A DNA stretch of 31,668 nt from Anaerolineales bacterium (GCA_033577755.1 JAVQXV010000018.1:1-31668), one strand, 5' to 3'; positions 9,501-28,062 are shown, numbered from the stretch's first letter. Program-made: numbers and translations. Notes: generated by a model from the letters alone, not told the origin.

Positions 9501-10140
9501 CCGGTCCGGCGCTGTTGCCGGCGTCGCTTGTCGTCGCGTTAATCAGGTTCACAAGATCGGCTGTGGATAGCACCTGGCTGTTCTCCAGCCGATAATCGGC
9601 GATAGGGAAGATGTTGAGGACGCCGGGCTGGCGGGCGAGCCAGGCGTGGCCGGCAGCGTCGGTCTCTAGCACAATGGCGTTGAGGCTTCGGCTCAGGCGG
9701 GCCAACACACGGCTCGTTGGATGTGCTGCGCTGAGGGTTTCGATGAAGCGGTCTTGTGCGTCCTCGATGAGCGAGGCTTGTGCCATCTGGCGCTCACGTC
9801 CGGCCTGAACCGAGGCCAGGTCGGCGAGGGAAGGCTCGGCAAGTTGAACCAGAACCCGTTGCCGTTCGCTTACGGTTTGTGGGGCGACATTGGCCACGGC
9901 AAAGTCTGCGCCGGCCGTGAGCGGCGTCTCGAGGCGGGAGGCTTCGATCCAGGCCGGCAGAGGCGCAAGTGAAGCCGGGCCGTGTCTTAGGGAGATGAGT
10001 TGGTTCGACTTCAGGTCTTCAAGCCACCGGGGTGGGCGGAGCGGGATCTGGGCCAGAGCCGGGAGAAGGGGCTGTGCAACGAAGGCGATTACGATACAGA
10101 GTGAGATGAAGAGACAAAAGCGTGGCGAAATAGATTTCAT
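6595..10140 (-). CDS. Secreted subtilase (S8)-family protein, 1181 aa. It has a signal peptide, a propeptide-like region, and an S8 domain interrupted by two DUF4397-like beta repeats. The catalytic Ser is replaced by Asp (GTS to GTD), and a ~440-aa beta-rich tail follows.
   Basis: D motif IAILDSGID, H motif HGTQMADIAAG and N motif IVNLSLS all align to subtilisin. The Ser motif aligns as GTDVAAARVSGAAAVLI against GTSMASPHVAGAAALIL. I checked the reverse-complemented DNA (ggc acc gat gtc gca). Confidence 0.85.
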   Translation of the reverse strand: MKSISPRFCLFISLCIVIAFVAQPLLPALAQIPLRPPRWLEDLKSNQLISLRHGPASLAPLPAWIEASRLETPLTAGADFAVANVAPQTVSERQRVLVQLAEPSLADLASVQAGRERQMAQASLIEDAQDRFIETLSAAHPTSRVLARLSRSLNAIVLETDAAGHAWLARQPGVLNIFPIADYRLENSQVLSTADLVNLINATTSDAGNSAGPEGSVILGQAQPDSTTSDAGSGIRIAILDSGIDFTHAKLGGPGTPTAYAAAYCGRPDARPDPTDPTCNAHTQAPQFNAKVVGGYDFVGESWPRGPLAPDPNPIDFFGHGTQMADIAAGLPLRRNDRARLRLAHFAAGATNVNVFLNGEPVLVNVAFRTITDYAVLQPGAYRLQITPAGQTQPALAETTLTLEPGQDYTVASLEAAGAPFLLTLADNLSAPAAEYVHVRFINTASEGRAIDIALANGGPVLVSNLAFAQASDYVTLPASRHAFEVLDTETSARLTTSTALTFNGGRTYTGYLAGIPSGTGSRTFVLEWSMDDSGTTTGVAPGAVLYAVKVCSAVADACSGVALLQGLEFALDPNGDGDLSDRVDIVNLSLSKPYGLAYDEALSMAILSAGSAGVLTVGVAGDNGNKPYTVSTPGASYGALSVAATSHTGTVLSNSSRGPNGGQMFYNNDIMYAQLIKPEIAAPGSAEAARAGSGSGTRALSGTDVAAARVSGAAAVLIHATERRLWQTEIKSRLMNTAESRVLAEDGRPAPVTRIGSGELRLERALNAQAVAWEEHNRGGALAFGFVDVATHHVTLTRRIFIRNLSHHPIHYRIVPSFRDEADALSGAVSMEVQEGLEVPPGETCPLEIRLHIDGSRLSGWWLNSGANGDNGQALTALEFDGYLNLIDEADPRNNLSLPWHVLPRRAGDTEPATTTLYLENRSGQLELFNHGIGPAYVDGYSLVAVSENQAASFAGLDRTVIDLKAVGVRTFPVPAGFCSPAPSFLLAFAISTHYRQSHANAPGRLEINLDLNRDGVADYQMFNADMNQPNVSAGRNVVWVRNLMTGVATARFYVGHALESGNFTLVACAEQLGLTLADYGRAIGVRVDARDWANSGQITDTADGIAIVVGGDRFLSGGGDIAPNSSVRWIITDRGAAGTSPSEFGLLLLTDAPRLENGRPTRSGAADPAREAWVIHIVP

Positions 10141-10384
10141 AAGGTGAGGCAGTCGCTATAGTAAAAAGCCGGTATGGCAGGCAAACGTGCAAAAAAACAG
10201 CCCTGCGCCTGGCCGGTCTAGCAACGAACTGTCCGGCAGGGCGTTCCTCCGACGGATGGCCCGCCGGACGAGCGCTCTGGCTGCCTGAGACGTGCTCGGT
10301 ATGTTGTTTTCAGCCGTACTTCGCGTTCGAACTGCGTTGCCCGAAATGTTATGCAGGCTTAAGCTGAGAGTCAAGAAACCACAA

Positions 10385-10470
10385 GGGCTATTCAATCCTA
10401 CCGGTACAGAATCCCTAATCTCGGCGCTCTCGTTCTCCAATCTCACCCTTTATCCCATCCCACCTCACCA
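10385..10470. repeat. AATC/ATCC-core degenerate tandem array (caatcct..gaatccct aatctcgg..ctccaatctcaccctttatcccatccc) in the long non-coding region upstream of the subtilase gene.
   Basis: Read directly. It resembles the array at 30995-31030 (caatctccaatctcttatctccattcc). Confidence 0.5.
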
Positions 10471-10679
10471 CCGCACAAGCGGCACGAACCTCCGATCTGC
10501 GCCAGAAGGCGCTGAAGCGCACAGCTTCGCTCCGTGCGGTCTCGTAGCTGCTCGCCAGTTGATGATAGAGCAACGATCGGCGCGTCGCCCCGGCCGGGAC
10601 GGTCAGGTTGAAGGTGACGCCGACGCCGTTCAGCCCGGTGGAGCCAGGGTCGAGTAGAAATCATTGTTCACGGACTGGG

Positions 10680-10845
10680 TGTGTGCACGCAAAGGTTGTC
10701 AGGGAACGTGCCGCCCCTTCGTCCTTCGGCGGGCATCCTGAGCTGAGCGAAGCGTAGTCGAAGGACGCCCGCCGCTCCCCTGAGCGCGCTCATCGGAGCG
10801 AAGCCGAAGGGTCAAGGTGCGGCTGACATGTTTTGGGTGCACACG
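10680..10845. repeat. MITE-like element 'B', long copy. Ends GTGTGCACGCA ... GGGTGCACAC. The internal stem pairs cgtccttcggcggg with cccgccg...cgaaggacg.
   Basis: Its ends match 133-166 and 200-229 of copy 1 in direct orientation. The centre is ~60 nt longer and palindromic. Confidence 0.5.
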
Positions 10846-10888
10846 ACCGGGTGACGTTCTTGAAAAGGATCATCAAAATGCCACAGAC

Positions 10889-11022
10889 TAGTGCCTTGTT
10901 AGGCAAGATATTGTAATTTGGGCGGGTTCGCCACTGGTCGGTTCATGTGCAATCGTAATGAGTTTTGATGGCGAAATGCTCGGTGTTGCGAAATATCAAA
11001 ATTCAACCTAACAAGGCACTAG
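10889..11022. mobile_element. MITE-like element 'A', complete copy 2, inverted relative to copy 1. The 16-bp terminal inverted repeats are ctagtgccttgttagg and cctaacaaggcactag.
   Basis: Reverse complement of window 1-127 with a few substitutions. Both terminal inverted repeats are readable. No ORF. Confidence 0.65.
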
Positions 11023-11122
11023 AGCGAATTCCTGATTGATTTACGGTTCCGTGACTGAAAACAGGTCGAATTTCGCATGCCTTGCCGTGATTCAAGCTGG
11101 AAACCGCTCTAGTACCAATCTC

Positions 11123-13300: not shown

Positions 13301-13837
13301 AACCCTCACCTCTTCGGTGCTCTCAATCCCCAGCCTGCGGCGCACGTGGGCGATCAGTCCGCCGGCTGCGATGATGCCGAGCGCGGTAGGCGAGAGCGGG
13401 GGAAAGGAATAGCGCCTGTTGCTCAGCTCGATAACGCTCTCTGCCAGATGGATAGTCAGCATGTCGCCGGTCTGCGCTGCGTCCACGACCTCCGGGCAGG
13501 TGATGAGCAGCAGGCCGTTGTTGAGGCCGTTGCGGAAGTAGATACGGGCGAACGACTTGGCGATGATGGCGGCGATGCCGCGATATTTCAGGCAGGTGAC
13601 GGCCTGCTCGCGCGAGCTGCCGTTGCCGAAGTTGCGCCCGGCCACGATGATGTCGCCCGGCTGCGCGCTGCGCGTGAACTCCGGGTCGAGGTCTTCGAGC
13701 GCATGGGCGGCAATCTCCGCCGGCTCACGTAGTGTGTAGGTGTACTTGCCGGGGAAGAGCACGTCGGTATTGATGCCGTCGCCGTACTTCCAGACTTTGC
13801 CGACAATGGGCATTGAGATATTGAGCGATTGAGTCAT
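13292..13837 (-). CDS. lysU: Homoaconitase / 3-isopropylmalate dehydratase small subunit, archaeal type (LysU)
   Basis: LeuD-like motifs (GKVWKYGDGINTD, GRNFGNGSSREQA). Adjacent to lysT and the dehydrogenase gene. Confidence 0.85.
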   Translation of the reverse strand: MTQSLNISMPIVGKVWKYGDGINTDVLFPGKYTYTLREPAEIAAHALEDLDPEFTRSAQPGDIIVAGRNFGNGSSREQAVTCLKYRGIAAIIAKSFARIYFRNGLNNGLLLITCPEVVDAAQTGDMLTIHLAESVIELSNRRYSFPPLSPTALGIIAAGGLIAHVRRRLGIESTEEVRVSD

Positions 13838-13850
13838 TGAGGATTGGTCT
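13811..13850. repeat. ATTGAGnn octamer x4-5 across the flotillin stop / lysU start overlap
   Basis: Read directly: attgagat attgagcg attgagtc attgagg attggtct. It encodes the lysU N-terminal MTQSLNIS. Confidence 0.7.
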
Positions 13851-15315
13851 GGGCCGGCGGTTCGGCGGGTGGCGTTTCCTTGAACAGGCGGGCGACGCGC
13901 GCCAGCACTTGCTCGATGTTTTGGCCGGAGAGCGCCTCTGTCTTGGCGTTGATGACGGTCGCCAGCTCAGGGATGTCGCGCAGGATGTTGGCCAGCGCGT
14001 TGCTGTGCGTTGCGTCGTTGCCGCCGAACTGGACGATGCGCACGTTCTGCCCGACGTTGCCCAGCGCCTGAGCAATTGCGCGCGCCTTCTCTACCTCCGC
14101 CTGAATGAGTAGCTGCGCAATGGTCTGGCGCAGGTTGATCTCGCCCTGGGCGGCTGTGGCCTGCGCCAACTTTTCCTTGCCTTCGGCCTCGGCCAGCAGG
14201 TTGGCGCGTGTGCCTTCCGCCTGTGCCAGCAGGGTCGCGCGCACGCCGTCGGCTTCCGCCGCCTTGAGCGCCCGCAGCTTTTCGGCCTCGGCAAGGCCGG
14301 TGCGCTCCAGCGCCTCGGCCTGGGCCGTGGACTCTTTCTTGAGCGCCTGAGCTTTTGCCTCTGCAATGATGGTGATGCGGCGGCTCTCGGCGTCGGCCTC
14401 GATCTGGGTGGCCTCACGCCGGGCGCGGGCCGGCGTCAGCACCTCGACCTCCTGCTGCTGCTGGACGAGCGCGGCGCGATTGCGCAGCACTTCTTCCTCA
14501 GCCTTGGTCTGAGCCAGGCTCACGGTCTTCGTTTTCTCGACCTCGCGCAGCTCCAGCGCCTGGCGCTGCTCAAGGATGGAGCGGGCGACGTCCAGCTCGG
14601 TCTGCTCGGCCTGTTGCCGGGCCTGTGCGGCTCTGATGCGCGCCTCGCGCTCGGCCTCGGCTTCCGCGATGGCGGCATCGCGTTTGATGGCGGCGATGCG
14701 TGGCTTGGCCATCGCTTCAAAGTAGCCCTGATCGTCGGTGATCTCCTCGATGCCCATCGAGATGATCTTGACGCCCATCGCCGCCATGTCGTCGTCGGCC
14801 AGGTCTTGCACGCTGCGCACGAAGGCGTCGCGGTCGCGATGGACGTTCTCCACCGTCAGCTGCCCGACGATGGCGCGGAAGTTGGCGCTCAGTGTCTGTG
14901 AGACGACGTTGATGACCTGTTCGCGGCTCATGCCGAGGAAGGCGCGGGCGGCGGTGATCAGCGCAGTCTTGTCGGAACCGATTTGTACCTGTGCCACCCA
15001 GTCCAGCTTGATGGGCACGCCGTCCACGGTGTACACCTCGTCGCCGGTCTTGACAATGGTCATCACGGTCAGATCAAGAAATTGGTATTCCTCGAAGAAC
15101 GGCAGAACGAACGTACCCCCGCCGGTGACCAGCCGGACCCCGGTCTGTTCGATGGAACCATCCTGTTTGAAGGTCGTCCGGCCACGCCCGTAGAGCACCA
15201 TGGCTTTGTTCGGCGGTACGCGGCGATAGACGGGGATGAACGAACGAAGGAGAAACAGCGCCAGACCTAGCAGAGCAAGGATGATGACGGCGGTCAAGAC
15301 GCTTTCGAAGAACAT
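13834..15315 (-). CDS. Flotillin / SPFH (band-7) domain membrane protein with a long Ala/Glu-rich coiled-coil tail. Inserted between lysT and lysU.
   Basis: N-terminal TM helix, an SPFH domain, and an EA-rich coiled coil like FloT/YuaG. Its stop codon overlaps the lysU start by 4 nt. Confidence 0.85.
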   Translation of the reverse strand: MFFESVLTAVIILALLGLALFLLRSFIPVYRRVPPNKAMVLYGRGRTTFKQDGSIEQTGVRLVTGGGTFVLPFFEEYQFLDLTVMTIVKTGDEVYTVDGVPIKLDWVAQVQIGSDKTALITAARAFLGMSREQVINVVSQTLSANFRAIVGQLTVENVHRDRDAFVRSVQDLADDDMAAMGVKIISMGIEEITDDQGYFEAMAKPRIAAIKRDAAIAEAEAEREARIRAAQARQQAEQTELDVARSILEQRQALELREVEKTKTVSLAQTKAEEEVLRNRAALVQQQQEVEVLTPARARREATQIEADAESRRITIIAEAKAQALKKESTAQAEALERTGLAEAEKLRALKAAEADGVRATLLAQAEGTRANLLAEAEGKEKLAQATAAQGEINLRQTIAQLLIQAEVEKARAIAQALGNVGQNVRIVQFGGNDATHSNALANILRDIPELATVINAKTEALSGQNIEQVLARVARLFKETPPAEPPAQTNPQ

Positions 15316-23090: not shown

Positions 23091-23129
23091 GAAAAATGAA
23101 GAAGGCCTCTCGCAATCTGAGAGGCCTTC
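23091..23129 (-). terminator. Perfect 11-bp stem-loop (gaaggcctctc / gcaatct / gagaggccttc) followed on the - strand by ttcattttt. It lies immediately 5' of the lysW RBS. Candidate attenuator or riboswitch expression platform.
   Basis: Inverted repeat read directly. A U-rich tract follows in the - sense. No gene lies upstream on the - strand, so it is not an ordinary operon-end terminator. Confidence 0.55.
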
Positions 23130-23541
23130 GGGCTAGCGTGGCTTGGGTCGCAGGTGCGCGGGCGTCTTCCCAAACTCAAAAACCGAAGACCTCTACAGGC
23201 TTCGGGAAACGACGCGCGCGCTTCAGACCGGCGATCCAGTTCATGTTGTTGACGATTATGGTGGCGATAGGTTAAGTCGTCATTGTGTGATTCGTAAGAA
23301 ATTTTGACCTGTTGATTGGGCAAAGTCGTCGAACCGCCGTCGGCTTGCTCACCCATCCAAGCCGTCCCAAAGCTATTAGCCTGTCAGAAAGTGGTTAGGT
23401 TATTCTTGAAGCGGCAGGCGCTCCTGACCGTAGAGTCAGACAAAGCGACCGGCCGGCAAGATCAAATAACCTTAATGAATCGCGCTATACCATCGAGTAG
23501 AATGCTGTTCGACACAGTCTCCCGCTTCGCCGCTCTCTTGC

Positions 23542-24762
23542 ATGCCTCGCATTAACTGGTTCATCTTCGGCTTCTACCTGGTGCTGACCATCGGTGTATT
23601 CATCGGCGTGCTGGTTTCCCCGCCGTTCCGCGCCAACGGCTGGCTTTCCTACGCGCCGCTGCGTGAACTGGTGTTGCCGCCGCCGCCGCCCATCGAAATC
23701 TTGCTGCTGTACTCAACGGAGAAGGAAGCCTGGCTGCAGGAAGTGATTGGCCGCATGGAAAGGGATGGCTTGCAGGTGGAGGGCCGCCCGCTCAAGGTCA
23801 GGCTGGAGAAGCTTGGCTCGCGCGAAATTGTGCTTGCCGTCCTCAGCGGCGAGGCGAAGCCTGATCTGATTAGCCCGGCCAGCTCGCTCCAACTCGCTAT
23901 CCTCACCGACCTGTCCGCCGGCAAGTTCGGGAGTTCTGTCATCAATCAAGCCGATACCGCCCTGTGCCGGCCGGTGCTGCGCACGCCGCTTGTGATTGCC
24001 GCCTGGCGGGAACGCGCCGATGTGCTCTGGGGCGCAGACCCGGCTGGGAATTTGTGGTTGCGTCTGCATGATGCTCTGATCAACCCTCAGGGCTGGGCTG
24101 CCTTCGGTCATCCGGAATGGGGCTTTGTCAAATATGGGCAGACCGACCCGCTGCGCTCGAACAGTGGCTTTATGGCGACGCTACTTATGACATATGCCTA
24201 CTTCGGCAAGACCGGCGGCCTGAGCGGGCAGGACCTGCTGGGAGACCCCGGCTTTCAACGCTGGTTTGAAGAGTTCCAGGACAGCGCCGTTACGCCGTTC
24301 GCCCAAAGCACCGGCCCGCTGATGCAAGACATGATTACTATTGGCCCCAGCCGATACGATTTCGTGGCCGTGTACGAATCCACCGCTATCGAACAGGCGG
24401 AGAACGCGGTGGGGCGGTACGGTGAGTTGCGCATCTACTATCCGCCGGCGACGATGGTCAGCGATCATCCCTTCTGCGCGCTGCGGCAGACGGTGGCCAC
24501 GCCCTGGGTGACGCCGGAAAAGCTGCGCGCGGTACAAGTCTTTCTGGATTACCTGACTGCAGAGCCGGCGCAGGAGCTGGCCCTGCTGCGCTACGGCTAT
24601 CGCCCGGTGAACCCGGCGGTCTCGCTGACCATGCCCGGCAGCCCGCTAAGCAAGTACGCTACCAACGGCTTGCGCGCCGACCTGCCTCCGGAGGTAGAGG
24701 TGCCGCCCGGCGAGGTGCTCAACACGTTATTGGATTTATGGTCGCGAGTGACCGGTCGCTAG
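23542..24762 (+). CDS. Membrane-anchored periplasmic-binding-protein-fold (type 2 solute-binding-like) protein. One N-terminal TM helix, a Pro-rich linker, no vWA domain. Paralog of the next gene.
   Basis: N-terminal INWFIFGFYLVLTIGVFIGVLV. It shares blocks with 24778-26454: SPASS; HPEWGFVKYGQTDPLRSNSGF vs YPEWGSFKFGHTHPEFSNSGF; YGYRP vs LGFRP. Confidence 0.6.
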   Translation: MPRINWFIFGFYLVLTIGVFIGVLVSPPFRANGWLSYAPLRELVLPPPPPIEILLLYSTEKEAWLQEVIGRMERDGLQVEGRPLKVRLEKLGSREIVLAVLSGEAKPDLISPASSLQLAILTDLSAGKFGSSVINQADTALCRPVLRTPLVIAAWRERADVLWGADPAGNLWLRLHDALINPQGWAAFGHPEWGFVKYGQTDPLRSNSGFMATLLMTYAYFGKTGGLSGQDLLGDPGFQRWFEEFQDSAVTPFAQSTGPLMQDMITIGPSRYDFVAVYESTAIEQAENAVGRYGELRIYYPPATMVSDHPFCALRQTVATPWVTPEKLRAVQVFLDYLTAEPAQELALLRYGYRPVNPAVSLTMPGSPLSKYATNGLRADLPPEVEVPPGEVLNTLLDLWSRVTGR

Positions 24763-24777
24763 TTGTGGTAAGGAGCT

Positions 24778-26454
24778 TTGACAATGAAACTAAGAACGTA
24801 TCCCCTGTTGGCGCTGACGGTGATTGCATCACTGTTGCTTTCTGCCTGTAATGCCATTACTGAGTTGGCGCAGCCGACCGTTACTATCAGCATCGTCTAT
24901 GGCTCGGAGAAACGCGAATGGCTTGAGCCGCTGGTAGAGCAGTTCAACGCTGCAAAGAACAAGATCGCCAGCGGCGAGGTCATTAAGGTCGAAGCGACGG
25001 CGCTTGGCTCGATCGAGGCGGTGGAAGGTATCATCGCCGGGCGGATACAGCCGACGGTATGGAGCCCGGCCTCCTCATTGTACGTACCGCTGGCCAACGC
25101 CGAGTGGCGGCAGAATAACGCCGAAGACCTGATCACCGGTAACCCGAAGAACTTGGTGCTCAGCCCGGTCGTAGTTGCGATGTGGCAGCCGATGGCGGAA
25201 GCGCTCGGCTGGCCGAACAAACCCATCGGCTGGGCCGACATCGCGCAGCTGGCCATCTCCGAAGAGGGCTGGTCGGCCTACGGCTACCCAGAGTGGGGCA
25301 GCTTCAAGTTCGGACACACCCACCCTGAATTTAGCAATAGCGGTTTTGCCGCCGTGATTGCGCAGGCCTATGCCGGCGCAGGCAAGCAGCGCGACCTGAC
25401 CATCGCCGATCTGCAGAGCGAGCCGGTGAAGCAGCTGCTGCGCGAGGTGCAGGCCAGCATCATTCACTACGGCACCAGTACCGGCTTCTTCGCCGAGCGC
25501 ATGTTCGAGCGCGGCCCTTCCTACCTGAGCGCAGCCGTGCTCTACGAAAACCTGATCGTGGCGCAGGAGGCCAAGCGCCTTGCCGGGACAAGCCGGCAAT
25601 TGCCGGTGGTTGCCATCTATCCAAAAGAAGGCACGTTCACCACCAATCATCCGTACATCATCCTGAATGCGCCCTGGGTGACGACGGCACAGAAGGAAGC
25701 AGCGGAGGTCTTCGAGGCCTTCCTGCTGGACAAACCGCAGCAGCTGCGAGCGATGGAGCTTGGCTTCCGTCCCGCCGACCCGTCTATACCGTTTGCCGCC
25801 CCGCTCAACGCACAGCATGGCGTGGACATGTCTCAGCCGAAGACGGAACTGGCGACGCCCTCGCTGGAAGTGTTGCGCGGCATCGGCGAAGTGTGGCACG
25901 AGACCAAGAAGCCGGTGGATCTGGTGGCAGTGGTGGACATCTCCGGCAGCATGGCAGGCGAGAAGATTGCCGCCGCCCGAACGAGCCTGCAGCAGTTCAT
26001 TGACCTGCTCGATGACCGCGACCGATTGCAGGTCATACTCTTCAACGATAAGGTGATGACGATGGTGCCCTTGTCACCTCTGGGAGAGAAGCGGGCTGAT
26101 ATCCGCCGTCGGGTGGGCGGTATTGTGGAGTCGGGCGGTACGGCGCTTTACGACTCCATCGCCCAAGCCTATGCGGAATTACAGGCCAGTGCCGATCCGA
26201 AGCATATCCGCGCCATCGTAGTCCTGAGCGACGGCCAGGACACCGCCTCTAGCCTGACGCTGGAAGCGTTGTTGCAGCAGATCGGGCAGCTTCAAGAGGG
26301 CGGCGCGTCCATCAAAATCTTCACCATTGCCTTCGGCGACGATGCCGACGAAAGCGTGCTCCGACAAATTGCAGAGGCCACAGGCGCGCGTAGCTACAAA
26401 AGCAGCCCGGAAAACATCATGCGCGTTTACGGCGAGATTGCAACGTTCTTCTGA
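24778..26454 (+). CDS. Lipoprotein with an N-terminal solute-binding-like domain fused to a C-terminal von Willebrand factor A domain with an intact MIDAS. Likely the 'substrate-binding and VWA domain-containing protein' family.
   Basis: Lipobox LLLSAC. MIDAS residues are DISGSM ... T ... SDGQDT. The N-terminal half is paralogous to 23542-24762. Confidence 0.7.
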   Translation: MTMKLRTYPLLALTVIASLLLSACNAITELAQPTVTISIVYGSEKREWLEPLVEQFNAAKNKIASGEVIKVEATALGSIEAVEGIIAGRIQPTVWSPASSLYVPLANAEWRQNNAEDLITGNPKNLVLSPVVVAMWQPMAEALGWPNKPIGWADIAQLAISEEGWSAYGYPEWGSFKFGHTHPEFSNSGFAAVIAQAYAGAGKQRDLTIADLQSEPVKQLLREVQASIIHYGTSTGFFAERMFERGPSYLSAAVLYENLIVAQEAKRLAGTSRQLPVVAIYPKEGTFTTNHPYIILNAPWVTTAQKEAAEVFEAFLLDKPQQLRAMELGFRPADPSIPFAAPLNAQHGVDMSQPKTELATPSLEVLRGIGEVWHETKKPVDLVAVVDISGSMAGEKIAAARTSLQQFIDLLDDRDRLQVILFNDKVMTMVPLSPLGEKRADIRRRVGGIVESGGTALYDSIAQAYAELQASADPKHIRAIVVLSDGQDTASSLTLEALLQQIGQLQEGGASIKIFTIAFGDDADESVLRQIAEATGARSYKSSPENIMRVYGEIATFF

Positions 26455-26499
26455 TAAGAGAAGACGATCGAGCGTCGGTCGCAATCGTCGGCTCCCACT

Positions 26500-27222
26500 A
26501 TGCGTTCACCCTACGTCATTGCCTTTCTCAACCCCCTCAACCTGGCAATGCTGGCGCTCAGCGTTGCCGCCGGCTTGTGCTCGGCCTGGTGGCTCTTCCC
26601 GCTTGGCCTGCTGCTCTGGCTGGTGATGTTCCTGCTCGTGGCGCGCAATCCCGTCATGCGTGTGGCCCTCAAGCAGGAAGCCCGCAGCGGCGCCCTCTCG
26701 CCGCGCTTCCAGGCCGTCTTCGACGACGTGACCCGCGCGCAAACGCGCCTGTTCACTACGCTACAAAGCGCCGATGACCGGACGCAGGCCGTCTTTGCGC
26801 CGGTGCAGGACGCCGTCGAGGCGCTGGTGGATGAAGTCTATATCGTCTGCCAGCGGATGACCGGGCCGGAGAACTTCCGCCGTGTCTCCACGTTGAACAC
26901 CGACCTTGAAGGTGAGCGCGCGCTGGCCGTGCTGGCGATGGAGAGTGCCGCCGACCCGAAAGAGAAGGCCGAGAAGCAGGAGCAGGTTAGGGCAATCGAG
27001 GAGCGGATGAAGAGCATCAGGGCAGTGGAGACATTGCTCAATCGCGTCGAGACGCAGGTGAAGACGGTGGCGAACGAATTGCAGGCCACGCTGGCCGAGC
27101 TGGTACGTCTGCAGGCGCTGGGTGTGAAGGAGGCCGAGCAGCAAGTACCGACGCTGGCCCGGCGCATCCGCAGGCAGATCGAGGAACTGAAGGAGTTCGA
27201 GCGCGAGGCAGCGAAGTACTAG
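26500..27222 (+). CDS. Membrane protein with two N-terminal TM helices and a cytoplasmic coiled coil. Unknown function; possibly XpaC-like architecture.
   Basis: The hydrophobic segments LNLAMLALSVAAGLCSAWWLF and LGLLLWLVMFLLVA are followed by heptad-like charged repeats. Confidence 0.5.
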   Translation: MRSPYVIAFLNPLNLAMLALSVAAGLCSAWWLFPLGLLLWLVMFLLVARNPVMRVALKQEARSGALSPRFQAVFDDVTRAQTRLFTTLQSADDRTQAVFAPVQDAVEALVDEVYIVCQRMTGPENFRRVSTLNTDLEGERALAVLAMESAADPKEKAEKQEQVRAIEERMKSIRAVETLLNRVETQVKTVANELQATLAELVRLQALGVKEAEQQVPTLARRIRRQIEELKEFEREAAKY

Positions 27223-27246
27223 CGACTTTGGCCTGCCACTTGGCGC

Positions 27247-28062
27247 ATGAACTGCTCGCTCGAGGGGTTGGCAGCGCAGCATGAAAAGACAACATTGTGT
27301 ATGTGGCCAATCCAGAACTGGTGGGCGCGCCCTGTGGCCGTGTTTGGCCTGTTGACCGCGCTCGCCCTGAGCCTGACGCCGTTGCCCTCGCCCTGGGAGG
27401 GCTGGCTGCGCGATGGTTGCGAGCGCGTGAACTGCTACTGCGAAGCGCTGCGCGATGCCCTCGTCGTGCAGCCGGTCAGCACGCACTCCAACCTGGCCTT
27501 CGTCCTGGTTGGGCTGCTCATTGTCTTTGCGCCGCCGCGCGCCTCGGCCCGGCCCACCTATCAGACGGTGTTCGGGCTGGCAGTGATGGCGGTGGGCTTC
27601 GGCTCGTGGTTCTATCACGCTTCGCTCACGCGCCTGGGGGAGTGGTTCGATCTGGTCGGCGTTTATCTGCTGCTCAGTCTGATGTTGCTGGTGAACGCGC
27701 ACCGCCTGCGGCCGCTGCGGCCCGTGACCCTGGCCGCGCTGTATTTCGGTATCAATATGCTGGGCGGTTTGCAGATGGTCTTTGCCAACGCGCTACAGCA
27801 GGTGGTGTTCGTGGGATTGTTCGGCGGCGCGCTGCTGCTTGAGATCGCGGTCTGGCTGAAGCACCGGCCCCGGATGCAGTTGGGCTGGCTCCTCGCCGCG
27901 CTGGCGACGTTTGCGCTGGCAGCGGCCACCTGGCTGGCGGACGCGCAGTTGCCCTGCGACCCGGCCAGCCCCTTCCAGTGGCATGGCCTATGGCATGCGC
28001 TGACCGCGACGGCGGCGGGGTTTGTGTTCCTGTATTACCGCTCCGAAGTTGAAGGGATTTGA
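27247..28062 (+). CDS. Ceramidase-family (alkaline ceramidase / PF05875-like) 7-TM membrane hydrolase. The start may be the internal Met at ~27301.
   Basis: Motifs align to human ACER3: CE..N..C / STHSNLAFVL vs DWCEENY / NTVSNL; GSWFYHASL..EWFDLVGVY vs GSWCFHMTL..LLDELPMIY; QWHGLWHALTA vs QFHAWWHILTG. Confidence 0.55.
   Translation: MNCSLEGLAAQHEKTTLCMWPIQNWWARPVAVFGLLTALALSLTPLPSPWEGWLRDGCERVNCYCEALRDALVVQPVSTHSNLAFVLVGLLIVFAPPRASARPTYQTVFGLAVMAVGFGSWFYHASLTRLGEWFDLVGVYLLLSLMLLVNAHRLRPLRPVTLAALYFGINMLGGLQMVFANALQQVVFVGLFGGALLLEIAVWLKHRPRMQLGWLLAALATFALAAATWLADAQLPCDPASPFQWHGLWHALTATAAGFVFLYYRSEVEGI

Follow-up and report, generated by a model that had tools for sequence, protein, structure and literature searches.

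Solute-binding proteins (SBPs) of the type-II bilobal fold, such as the cluster-D proteins Sbp/CysP, AfuA, FbpA and TbpA, are familiar from ATP-binding cassette (ABC) systems, where they work with a cognate permease and ATPase; PstS does so within the Pst-PhoU-PhoR/PhoB system. In TorT-TorS and LuxP-LuxQ, a periplasmic binding protein serves a membrane protein, not a transporter. A further set of proteins, including BatA/BatB, YfbK-type proteins, ITIH and CMG2, has the von Willebrand factor A (vWA) fold with a metal ion-dependent adhesion site (MIDAS). Here we describe a locus at positions 23542 to 28062 of a 31,668-nucleotide stretch of DNA from an Anaerolineales bacterium (GCA_033577755.1 JAVQXV010000018.1:1-31668; hereafter the window) that brings such elements together: a membrane-anchored binding protein (g1), a paralogue fused to a vWA domain (g2), a protein with two transmembrane (TM) helices (g3) and a ceramidase-family hydrolase (g4). 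The original prediction, made from the sequence, was of a four-gene operon for envelope sensing, adhesion or lipid remodelling. Our analysis identifies a smaller unit, and on balance we favour the reading that g1-g2-g3 is an uncharacterised envelope binding or sensing module, usually controlled by phosphate starvation and not itself a transporter, beside which the ceramidase-like gene is incidental.

The evidence for the unit comes from comparison of related genomes. Scanning one genome per GTDB species with conserved g2 peptides yielded 80 loci, all from Chloroflexota and mostly from Anaerolineae (carriers include Anaerolinea, Bellilinea, Leptolinea, Ornatilinea, Brevefilum and Villigracilis), and tblastn searches with the window proteins against these and three other loci gave a set of 82 non-redundant loci, designated below by L numbers. 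In 76 of the 82, g1 immediately precedes g2, with a contig end cutting five of the other six, and g3 is found downstream of g2 in 78. The order and strand of all three are kept in about 78 of the 82 Anaerolineae/Chloroflexota loci, and the median distance from the g2 stop codon to the start of the g3 open reading frame (ORF) is 10 nt. The same tblastn searches found a ceramidase-family gene at none of the 82 loci. That the binding-protein pair, with its SBP-vWA fusion, belongs together with the 2-TM protein is thus borne out, whereas the four-gene operon as a unit is not: the conserved functional unit is the three-gene operon g1-g2-g3.

Within the window all four ORFs do lie on the same (+) strand, as had been proposed, and the domain calls are real. 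g1 (23542..24762, +; 406 aa) matches SBP_bac_11 in Pfam (1.6e-9) and consists of an N-terminal TM segment (aa 6-27), the single N-terminal hydrophobic segment seen in a hydropathy scan, followed by a linker (aa 28-50) and the binding domain (aa ~51-406). g2 (24778..26454, +; 558 aa) is a lipoprotein with a binding-protein domain (aa ~33-372, nt 24874-25893) and a C-terminal vWA domain (aa ~380-558, nt 25915-26451); the Pfam match is clear for VWA (PF00092, 2e-19) and weak for SBP_bac_8 (8.5e-7). An NCBIfam scan of the window's four proteins added nothing specific. The 15-nt spacing first reported between g1 and g2 is correct if translation of g2 starts at a TTG codon, whereas the 556-aa protein in the database begins at 24784, two codons farther on.

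Over 359 aa, g1 is 30% identical to the N-terminal two-thirds of g2 (E 2e-43), its paralogue, and both proteins are membrane tethered, as originally described: g1 by its TM segment and g2 by a lipobox (LLLSAC) whose Cys24 is invariant in 57 homologues. The claim of a complete MIDAS likewise stands, with D387-x-S389-x-S391, T455 and D485 invariant in 57 homologues. Conservation in g1 is strong in the juxtamembrane linker (YAPLRE..LPPPxP), with P27, R30, A38, P39, R41, P46, P48 and P50 invariant across 17 homologues, as is S206-N207-S208-G209 in the binding domain. Such unusual conservation of a linker argues for a specific contact and not a passive tether. Several invariant polar loops are common to g1 and g2: Y-[GS]-[ST]-E-K, SPASS, T-x-P-x-x-SNSG, STG and YE. 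Some genomes carry a second g1-type gene (L034:13378-14568, L042:12682-13872, L008:13525-14733), which in L034 and L042 is inserted between g2 and g3.

The type-II bilobal fold of the g2 binding domain is supported both by Pfam and by comparison of an AlphaFold model (predicted local distance difference test score, pLDDT, 80.4) with the Sbp, AfuA, FbpA and TbpA structures (E ~1e-10). In Foldseek searches the best binding-protein match of this half is the sulfate-binding protein 5um2 (E 5.8e-11, TM-score 0.70), with 1sbp also found, and next come the sugar-phosphate binders AfuA and VcA0625, the ferric ion-binding FbpA and the thiamin-binding TbpA. This cluster handles oxyanions and phosphorylated or charged small ligands; with identities of only 12-17% to the fold matches, no ligand can be named. 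The vWA half matches ITIH4, CMG2, a Catenulispora vWA protein and BatB. A search of Protein Data Bank (PDB) sequences with a profile of g1 homologues gave no match, and a residue-level likeness of g1 and g2 to E. coli Sbp was dropped, the BLAST comparison with an Sbp sequence being non-significant. The g2 family is large, with more than 4000 database matches in a word-indexed search, some possibly to the vWA domain only. Certain of its entries are already named 'substrate-binding and VWA domain-containing protein' by NCBI, and the JGI label, 'Ca-activated chloride channel family protein', we judge to be a mislabel. The view that SBP-vWA fusions are essentially uncharacterised is upheld by a literature search, which retrieved no relevant paper on SBP-vWA proteins or a module of this kind, on g3, on vWA proteins and the Pho regulon, on TTAACA and PhoP, or on a Chloroflexota Pho box.

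The third member of the triad, g3 (26500..27222, +; 240 aa), is a dedicated partner of the binding proteins. It begins with a 2-TM hairpin (aa 12-48, nt 26533-26643), the most conserved part of the protein (W30, W31, P34, G36 and W40 are invariant), and continues with a helical domain of ~190 aa. The two TM helices first described are confirmed but the long coiled coil is not: in the AlphaFold model (pLDDT 87.7) the protein is all helical and its soluble part is a compact bundle. Arg/Lys residues follow TM2, which suggests that the bundle is cytoplasmic. Scans of Pfam and NCBIfam gave no credible family and no kinase, HAMP or other output domain, and a search of PDB sequences returned coiled-coil noise only. 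Two candidate identities, PhoU and PspA/IM30, were rejected by profile-profile comparison (hhalign probabilities of 1.6% and <1%, respectively). The family is small, with 713 representatives at E<=1e-3 and 208 at E<=1e-10 in a hidden Markov model scan of 1.84 billion representatives. Distant homologues (250-277 aa) have a g1-type or SBP-vWA partner in five of six loci examined; the g1-type partner in L084 is 33% identical to g1 (E 3e-60). Since distant g3 homologues keep such partners, the oldest association seems to be that of a g1-type binding protein with g3, the vWA-bearing paralogue having been added later.

What lies around the triad points to phosphate. ORFs in the flanks were called and clustered without bias, and the commonest clusters were scanned with Pfam and NCBIfam. 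The neighbours so identified are PstB (27 loci), PstS (18), PhoU (17), SurE (17), an OmpR-type response regulator (16), PstC/PstA (15), a GAF-HAMP histidine kinase (14), Ppx-GppA (10) and an SPFH/Band_7_1 protein (10). The PstS neighbours score above the cut-off of TIGR02136, with 257 bits for a neighbouring true PstS, and the PhoU neighbours above that of TIGR02135. Among the 61 loci of at least 12 kb, Pst/PhoU genes occur within 10 kb of the triad in 38 and some Pho-type neighbour in 44. By rough reckoning, a pst operon would turn up by chance in about 1% of 20-kb stretches from a genome of 4-5 Mb.

Two further neighbours of the triad may be mentioned. The GAF-HAMP histidine kinase gene is often co-transcribed with one for a short PstS-like (PBP_like_2) protein (L003:3310-6441, - strand; also in L015, L016, L034, L042, L056, L075 and L079), a pair that may be a binding protein-assisted phosphate sensor; it is often divergent from the triad, with a repeat-bearing intergenic region common to both. 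Directly upstream of g1 in 17 loci is a gene for a conserved 340-aa protein without a Pfam domain (L001:5538-6560, L039:6559-7587), which has a weak NCBIfam likeness, below cut-off, to surface-carbohydrate biosynthesis proteins and glycosyltransferases (TIGR04396, 8.8e-11).

The second line of evidence comes from the promoters. The words most enriched upstream of g1 contain TTAACA, and TTAACA-like hexamers 11 bp apart occur there 50 times, compared with 1.8 in shuffled sequence; lesser spacing peaks are seen at 22-23 and 33-34 bp. Of 75 loci, 39 have the dimer TTAACA-N5-TTAACA upstream of g1, in most cases 40-130 nt ahead of the start codon. Across all fetched loci (1.27 Mb) there are 77 such dimers: 32 are just upstream of g1, ten precede the SPFH gene and most of the remainder precede PstS-type genes, including those for tandem two- and three-domain PBP_like_2 proteins (L013, L020, L048 and L077), with others ahead of genes for a GT4 glycosyltransferase, an SBP_bac_6 protein and a calcineurin-like phosphoesterase. 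The TTAACA unit resembles the Bacillus PhoP half-site TT(A/T/C)ACA. Pho boxes in general consist of two 11-nt direct-repeat units (PMC4415409). On account of this repeat architecture, and of its presence upstream of PstS-type genes, TTAACA-N5-TTAACA probably serves as the Pho box in Anaerolineae, and in most of the class the triad is probably a Pho-regulon operon. The original proposal of envelope sensing or adhesion had missed both the phosphate neighbourhoods and the Pho-box-like repeats, which give a much more specific hypothesis.

Across L003-L083 the repeats often comprise three units, phased at 11 + 22 bp, and they are also found ahead of a GPP34-family gene; examples lie at L064:9900-10000, L059:2380-2420, L077:13241-13263 and L013:2861-2885. 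The long PstS-type proteins encoded behind them (L013:2929-4872; L048:16778-18793, - strand; L077:13339-15777) are tandem PBP_like_2 proteins of two or three domains and 647, 671 and 812 aa. Such fusions of phosphate-binding proteins seem unusual.

How a module of this kind might work can be sketched. g1, through its TM helix, and g2, through its lipid, would present their paralogous and highly divergent type-II binding domains at the outer surface of the cytoplasmic membrane. Under phosphate limitation, a PhoB/PhoP-type regulator would bind the TTAACA-N5-TTAACA boxes and turn the operon on. Both binding domains might then capture an anionic, probably phosphorus-containing ligand, and the MIDAS metal would link g2 to an acidic partner, which might be g1 or else a polyanionic surface of the envelope or of a mineral. 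Anchoring of the complex in the membrane would fall to g3, by way of its conserved hairpin together with the juxtamembrane segment of g1, which is conserved as well; g3 could also link the complex to the cytoplasm, serving as a scaffold or relaying a signal to the Pst/PhoU/kinase machinery. The combination of two tethered receptors with a MIDAS and with a hairpin protein that has a putative cytoplasmic bundle suggests the capture or sensing of an anionic phosphorus ligand. A bolder scheme, in which g1 and g2 are Sbp-fold receptors that are joined by the MIDAS and sense or capture phosphate or a phosphorylated or polyanionic ligand, with information or ligand crossing the membrane via a g3 oligomer, we put forward as a long shot. 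It is likewise doubtful, if attractive, that the triad would prove to be a previously undescribed binding protein-dependent transmembrane device, independent of ABC, TRAP and TTT transporters and of classical sensor-kinase domains.

A number of observations weigh against a phosphate-controlled binding or sensing module. Some concern the window itself. Its triad is flanked by genes for lysine (LysW-pathway) and leucine biosynthesis, and its closest relatives (L004, L009, L011 and L089) also have a LysW-type lysine cluster instead of pst genes. There is no canonical Pho box in the g1 upstream region (23357..23541, +): the best matrix scores there are 6.9 and 6.1, compared with at least 17.7 for the sites from which the matrix was built. 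With box and pst neighbours both missing, Pho control is uncertain for this copy, which is an atypical member of the triad family without phosphate context. Other points are general. About half of the loci are without a stringent TTAACA box, the palindromic nature of GTTAAC makes the orientation of the site ambiguous, and another OmpR-family regulator could bind the motif instead. The triad-adjacent regulators and kinases are ambiguous in NCBIfam (PhoB, YycF or MtrA; WalK, PnpS or PhoR), scoring below cut-offs, and the neighbourhood counts are taken over related loci that are not phylogenetically independent. As for the proteins, neither g1 nor g2 matches PBP_like_2 or PstS models (PF12849, TIGR02136, TIGR00975) at E<=0.1; the best fold match of the binding domains, at 16% identity, is a sulfate-binding protein, which does not indicate the ligand; and structural and profile searches with g3 returned no informative relative and no characterised homologue. 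Finally, PspA adjoins distant g3 relatives in three of six loci, which points to membrane stress.

As regards the g1 promoter in the window, weak half-site-like matches lie at ~23390 (-) and 23458 (+), and the two best matrix matches of the whole window both fall in this upstream region. One of them overlaps a block that the window and L004 have in common, AGATCAAAT..CTTAA(T/C), which is followed by a -10-like hexamer, TAC(C/A)AT.

The alternative that survives best is that g1 and g2 are orphan SBPs feeding an ABC importer encoded elsewhere, such as PstCAB or a sulfate/oxyanion permease, with g3 as an accessory. The type-II fold is nearest to that of ABC-system SBPs, pstSCAB adjoins the triad in many genomes and these loci often carry tandem or additional copies of PstS. 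Yet the adjacent pst operons carry their own bona fide PstS, above the TIGR02136 cut-off, g1 and g2 fall outside the PBP_like_2 and PstS models, and the invariant pairing with g3, the conserved TM segment and linker of g1 and the vWA fusion are all atypical of transporter SBPs. The triad is also intact where ABC genes are not near, as in the window: no ABC permease or ATPase gene was found within the triad or anywhere else in the 31.7 kb, and the description of a unit without transporter genes is upheld. An ordinary ABC system just outside the locus had been considered from the outset, and in this respect the answer is mixed, with none present in the window and pstSCAB, accompanied by its own PstS, often next to the triad elsewhere. 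We consider the orphan SBP explanation unlikely.

Also to be weighed is a role in membrane stress or membrane organisation, in which g3 would partner PspA- or SPFH-type scaffolds and the phosphate link would be secondary, reflecting, for example, envelope remodelling in starvation. Three of the six loci with distant g3 homologues are PspA (PspA_IM30)-containing clusters (L084:2210-7305, L086:4650-7816 and L092:6001-9345): one comprises PspA, a g1-type SBP, g3 and two M48 proteases, and another g3, PspA and an AAA ATPase. Such clusters are a hint that the g3 2-TM family had an earlier tie to membrane-stress machinery. In addition, an SPFH (Band_7_1) gene is located upstream of g1 in ten loci and is preceded by the same repeat motif. 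Against this, no PspA gene is found within 10 kb of the triad in the 80 Anaerolineae loci, the g3 profile is unrelated to that of PspA (see above) and Pho-type neighbours are far commoner than SPFH; a membrane-stress role as the primary one is decidedly unlikely.

The invariant, complete MIDAS could also be taken to indicate a surface adhesion or matrix module, with the vWA domain mediating cell-cell, surface or filament-sheath attachment and the binding domains being structural or lectin-like. Among solved structures, those closest to the vWA half are adhesion or receptor domains from outside the cell, such as ITIH and CMG2, and Anaerolineae are filamentous. An adhesion module leaves the conserved g3, the Pho-type neighbourhoods and the promoter repeats without explanation, however, and the ancestral g1-type/g3 pair occurs without a vWA domain; we think it improbable.

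The ceramidase-family gene g4 (27247..28062, +; 271 aa) lies next to the triad and outside the conserved unit. Assignment of its product to the alkaline ceramidase/CREST family of membrane hydrolases stands (PF05875, 52.9 bits, 4.6e-14, with a curated cut-off of 32.5), and the accompanying description as a 7-TM protein is plausible, a simple hydropathy scan giving ~6-7 hydrophobic segments. The database version begins at 27301 (253 aa). A search of PDB sequences with g4 gave no match. The check on the catalytic site that had been suggested was positive: S120-x3-H124 and H246-x3-H250 are invariant in 16 homologues and D135 nearly so, a set that we take to correspond to the zinc site of ACER3 and the adiponectin receptors, and g4 looks like a catalytically competent hydrolase. 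C65, E66 and S81 are invariant in the family as well. The first two belong to a Cys-rich N-terminal motif, DGCExxNCYCE (residues ~52-66, window 27400-27445), that may form an extracytoplasmic disulfide or metal site and that is not known to occur in eukaryotic alkaline ceramidases.

In L089, the closest relative (g2 93% identical), the gene order is LysW, 50-aa ORF, g1, g2, g3, two opposite-strand ABC exporter genes and the ceramidase gene, which is thus 3.7 kb from g3. Given this order, and since none of the 82 related loci has the gene, the side-by-side position of g3 and g4 in the window reflects a local 3.7-kb difference and not a conserved operon. A four-gene operon for envelope sensing, adhesion or lipid remodelling, in which the hydrolase acts jointly with g1, g2 and g3, has in its favour the common strand, the short gaps, the lack of a predicted terminator between g3 and g4 and the intact catalytic set, but these are outweighed by the gene's absence from related loci, by the intervening exporter genes in L089 and by the contrast between 21 g4 homologues and more than 4000 g2 matches (from the word-indexed search, in which some may be to vWA only), and we give it very little credence. 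The lipid-remodelling component of the original prediction is accordingly left unsupported, because the ceramidase-family gene is not co-conserved; g4 is an incidental neighbour of the triad and the two should not be interpreted jointly.

Other features of the window lie outside the triad and g4. A strong GC-rich hairpin followed by a T-run is present at 23101-23129 (-), a short way upstream of where lysW starts. In relatives, a 50-aa ORF is annotated between lysW and g1 (L089:6394-6546). The hairpin and the adjoining 23130-23340 may act as leader or attenuator of the LysW-type lysine genes; Rfam detected no riboswitch. Farther upstream, a 493-aa SPFH/Band_7 gene (13834-15315, -) sits inside the lysine (alpha-aminoadipate/LysW) biosynthesis cluster, between the genes for the large and small subunits of homoaconitase; it belongs to PF01145 and differs in Pfam family from the Band_7_1 gene found with the triad at other loci. 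Between the S8-peptidase/DUF4397 and M20 peptidase (LysK-like) genes is a region of ~1 kb without a convincing ORF (10141-11122), which overlaps the part of the window with the lowest G+C (10001-11000, 0.573). Rfam and transfer RNA scans gave no match in this region or in the window as a whole.

Returning to the triad as an envelope binding or sensing module, the interest of the system lies partly in its setting. Anaerolineae are abundant in wastewater sludge, including that of phosphorus-removal plants, and in sediments and the subsurface, and their phosphate biology is almost unstudied. For this class the analysis yields a candidate Pho box and the draft of a Pho regulon, of which the triad is a likely member. 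If the favoured reading is true, solute-binding proteins would here be put to a use other than transport, in combination with a MIDAS adhesion domain and a membrane partner of their own, and the triad would offer experimental handles on phosphorus sensing or scavenging by these filamentous bacteria.

Comparison with the systems named at the outset brings out what is particular to this locus. With the cluster-D SBPs (Foldseek matches 5um2, 1sbp, 4r73/4r74, 4elq and 2qry), g1 and g2 have in common the type-II bilobal fold and Ser/Thr/Gly/Asn-rich conserved loops (SNSG, STG). Unlike those proteins, to which they are 12-17% identical, they have no cognate permease or ATPase and are always paired with g3; g1 is TM anchored with a conserved linker and g2 is fused to a vWA domain. 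The likeness to the PstS/Pst-PhoU-PhoR/PhoB system is one of neighbourhood in most Anaerolineae, of the same 11-bp-phased repeats and of membrane-tethered extracytoplasmic binding proteins; the differences are that g1 and g2 lie outside the PstS models, that g3 is not PhoU and that the window's copy is without box or pst neighbours. TorT-TorS and LuxP-LuxQ may offer a functional analogy, although g3 differs from TorS and LuxQ in having no transmitter or output domain and a very short external loop. BatA/BatB, YfbK-type proteins and ITIH/CMG2 share with g2 the vWA fold and its DxSxS...T...D MIDAS (9c4f_I, 1shu, 4fx5, 3ibs), whereas the g2 vWA domain, in contrast to BatA/BatB and YfbK-type proteins, is C-terminal to a binding domain and is encoded with a paralogous SBP and g3, without MoxR/Bat partners. 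Separate from the triad, g4 resembles the alkaline ceramidase/CREST enzymes in PF05875 and its S-x3-H, D, H-x3-H residues and differs from them in being bacterial, of 253 aa and Cys-rich at its N-terminus. All of the domains encoded here are of families already known; the novelty lies in the conserved combination of g1, g2 and g3, together with the predicted regulon.

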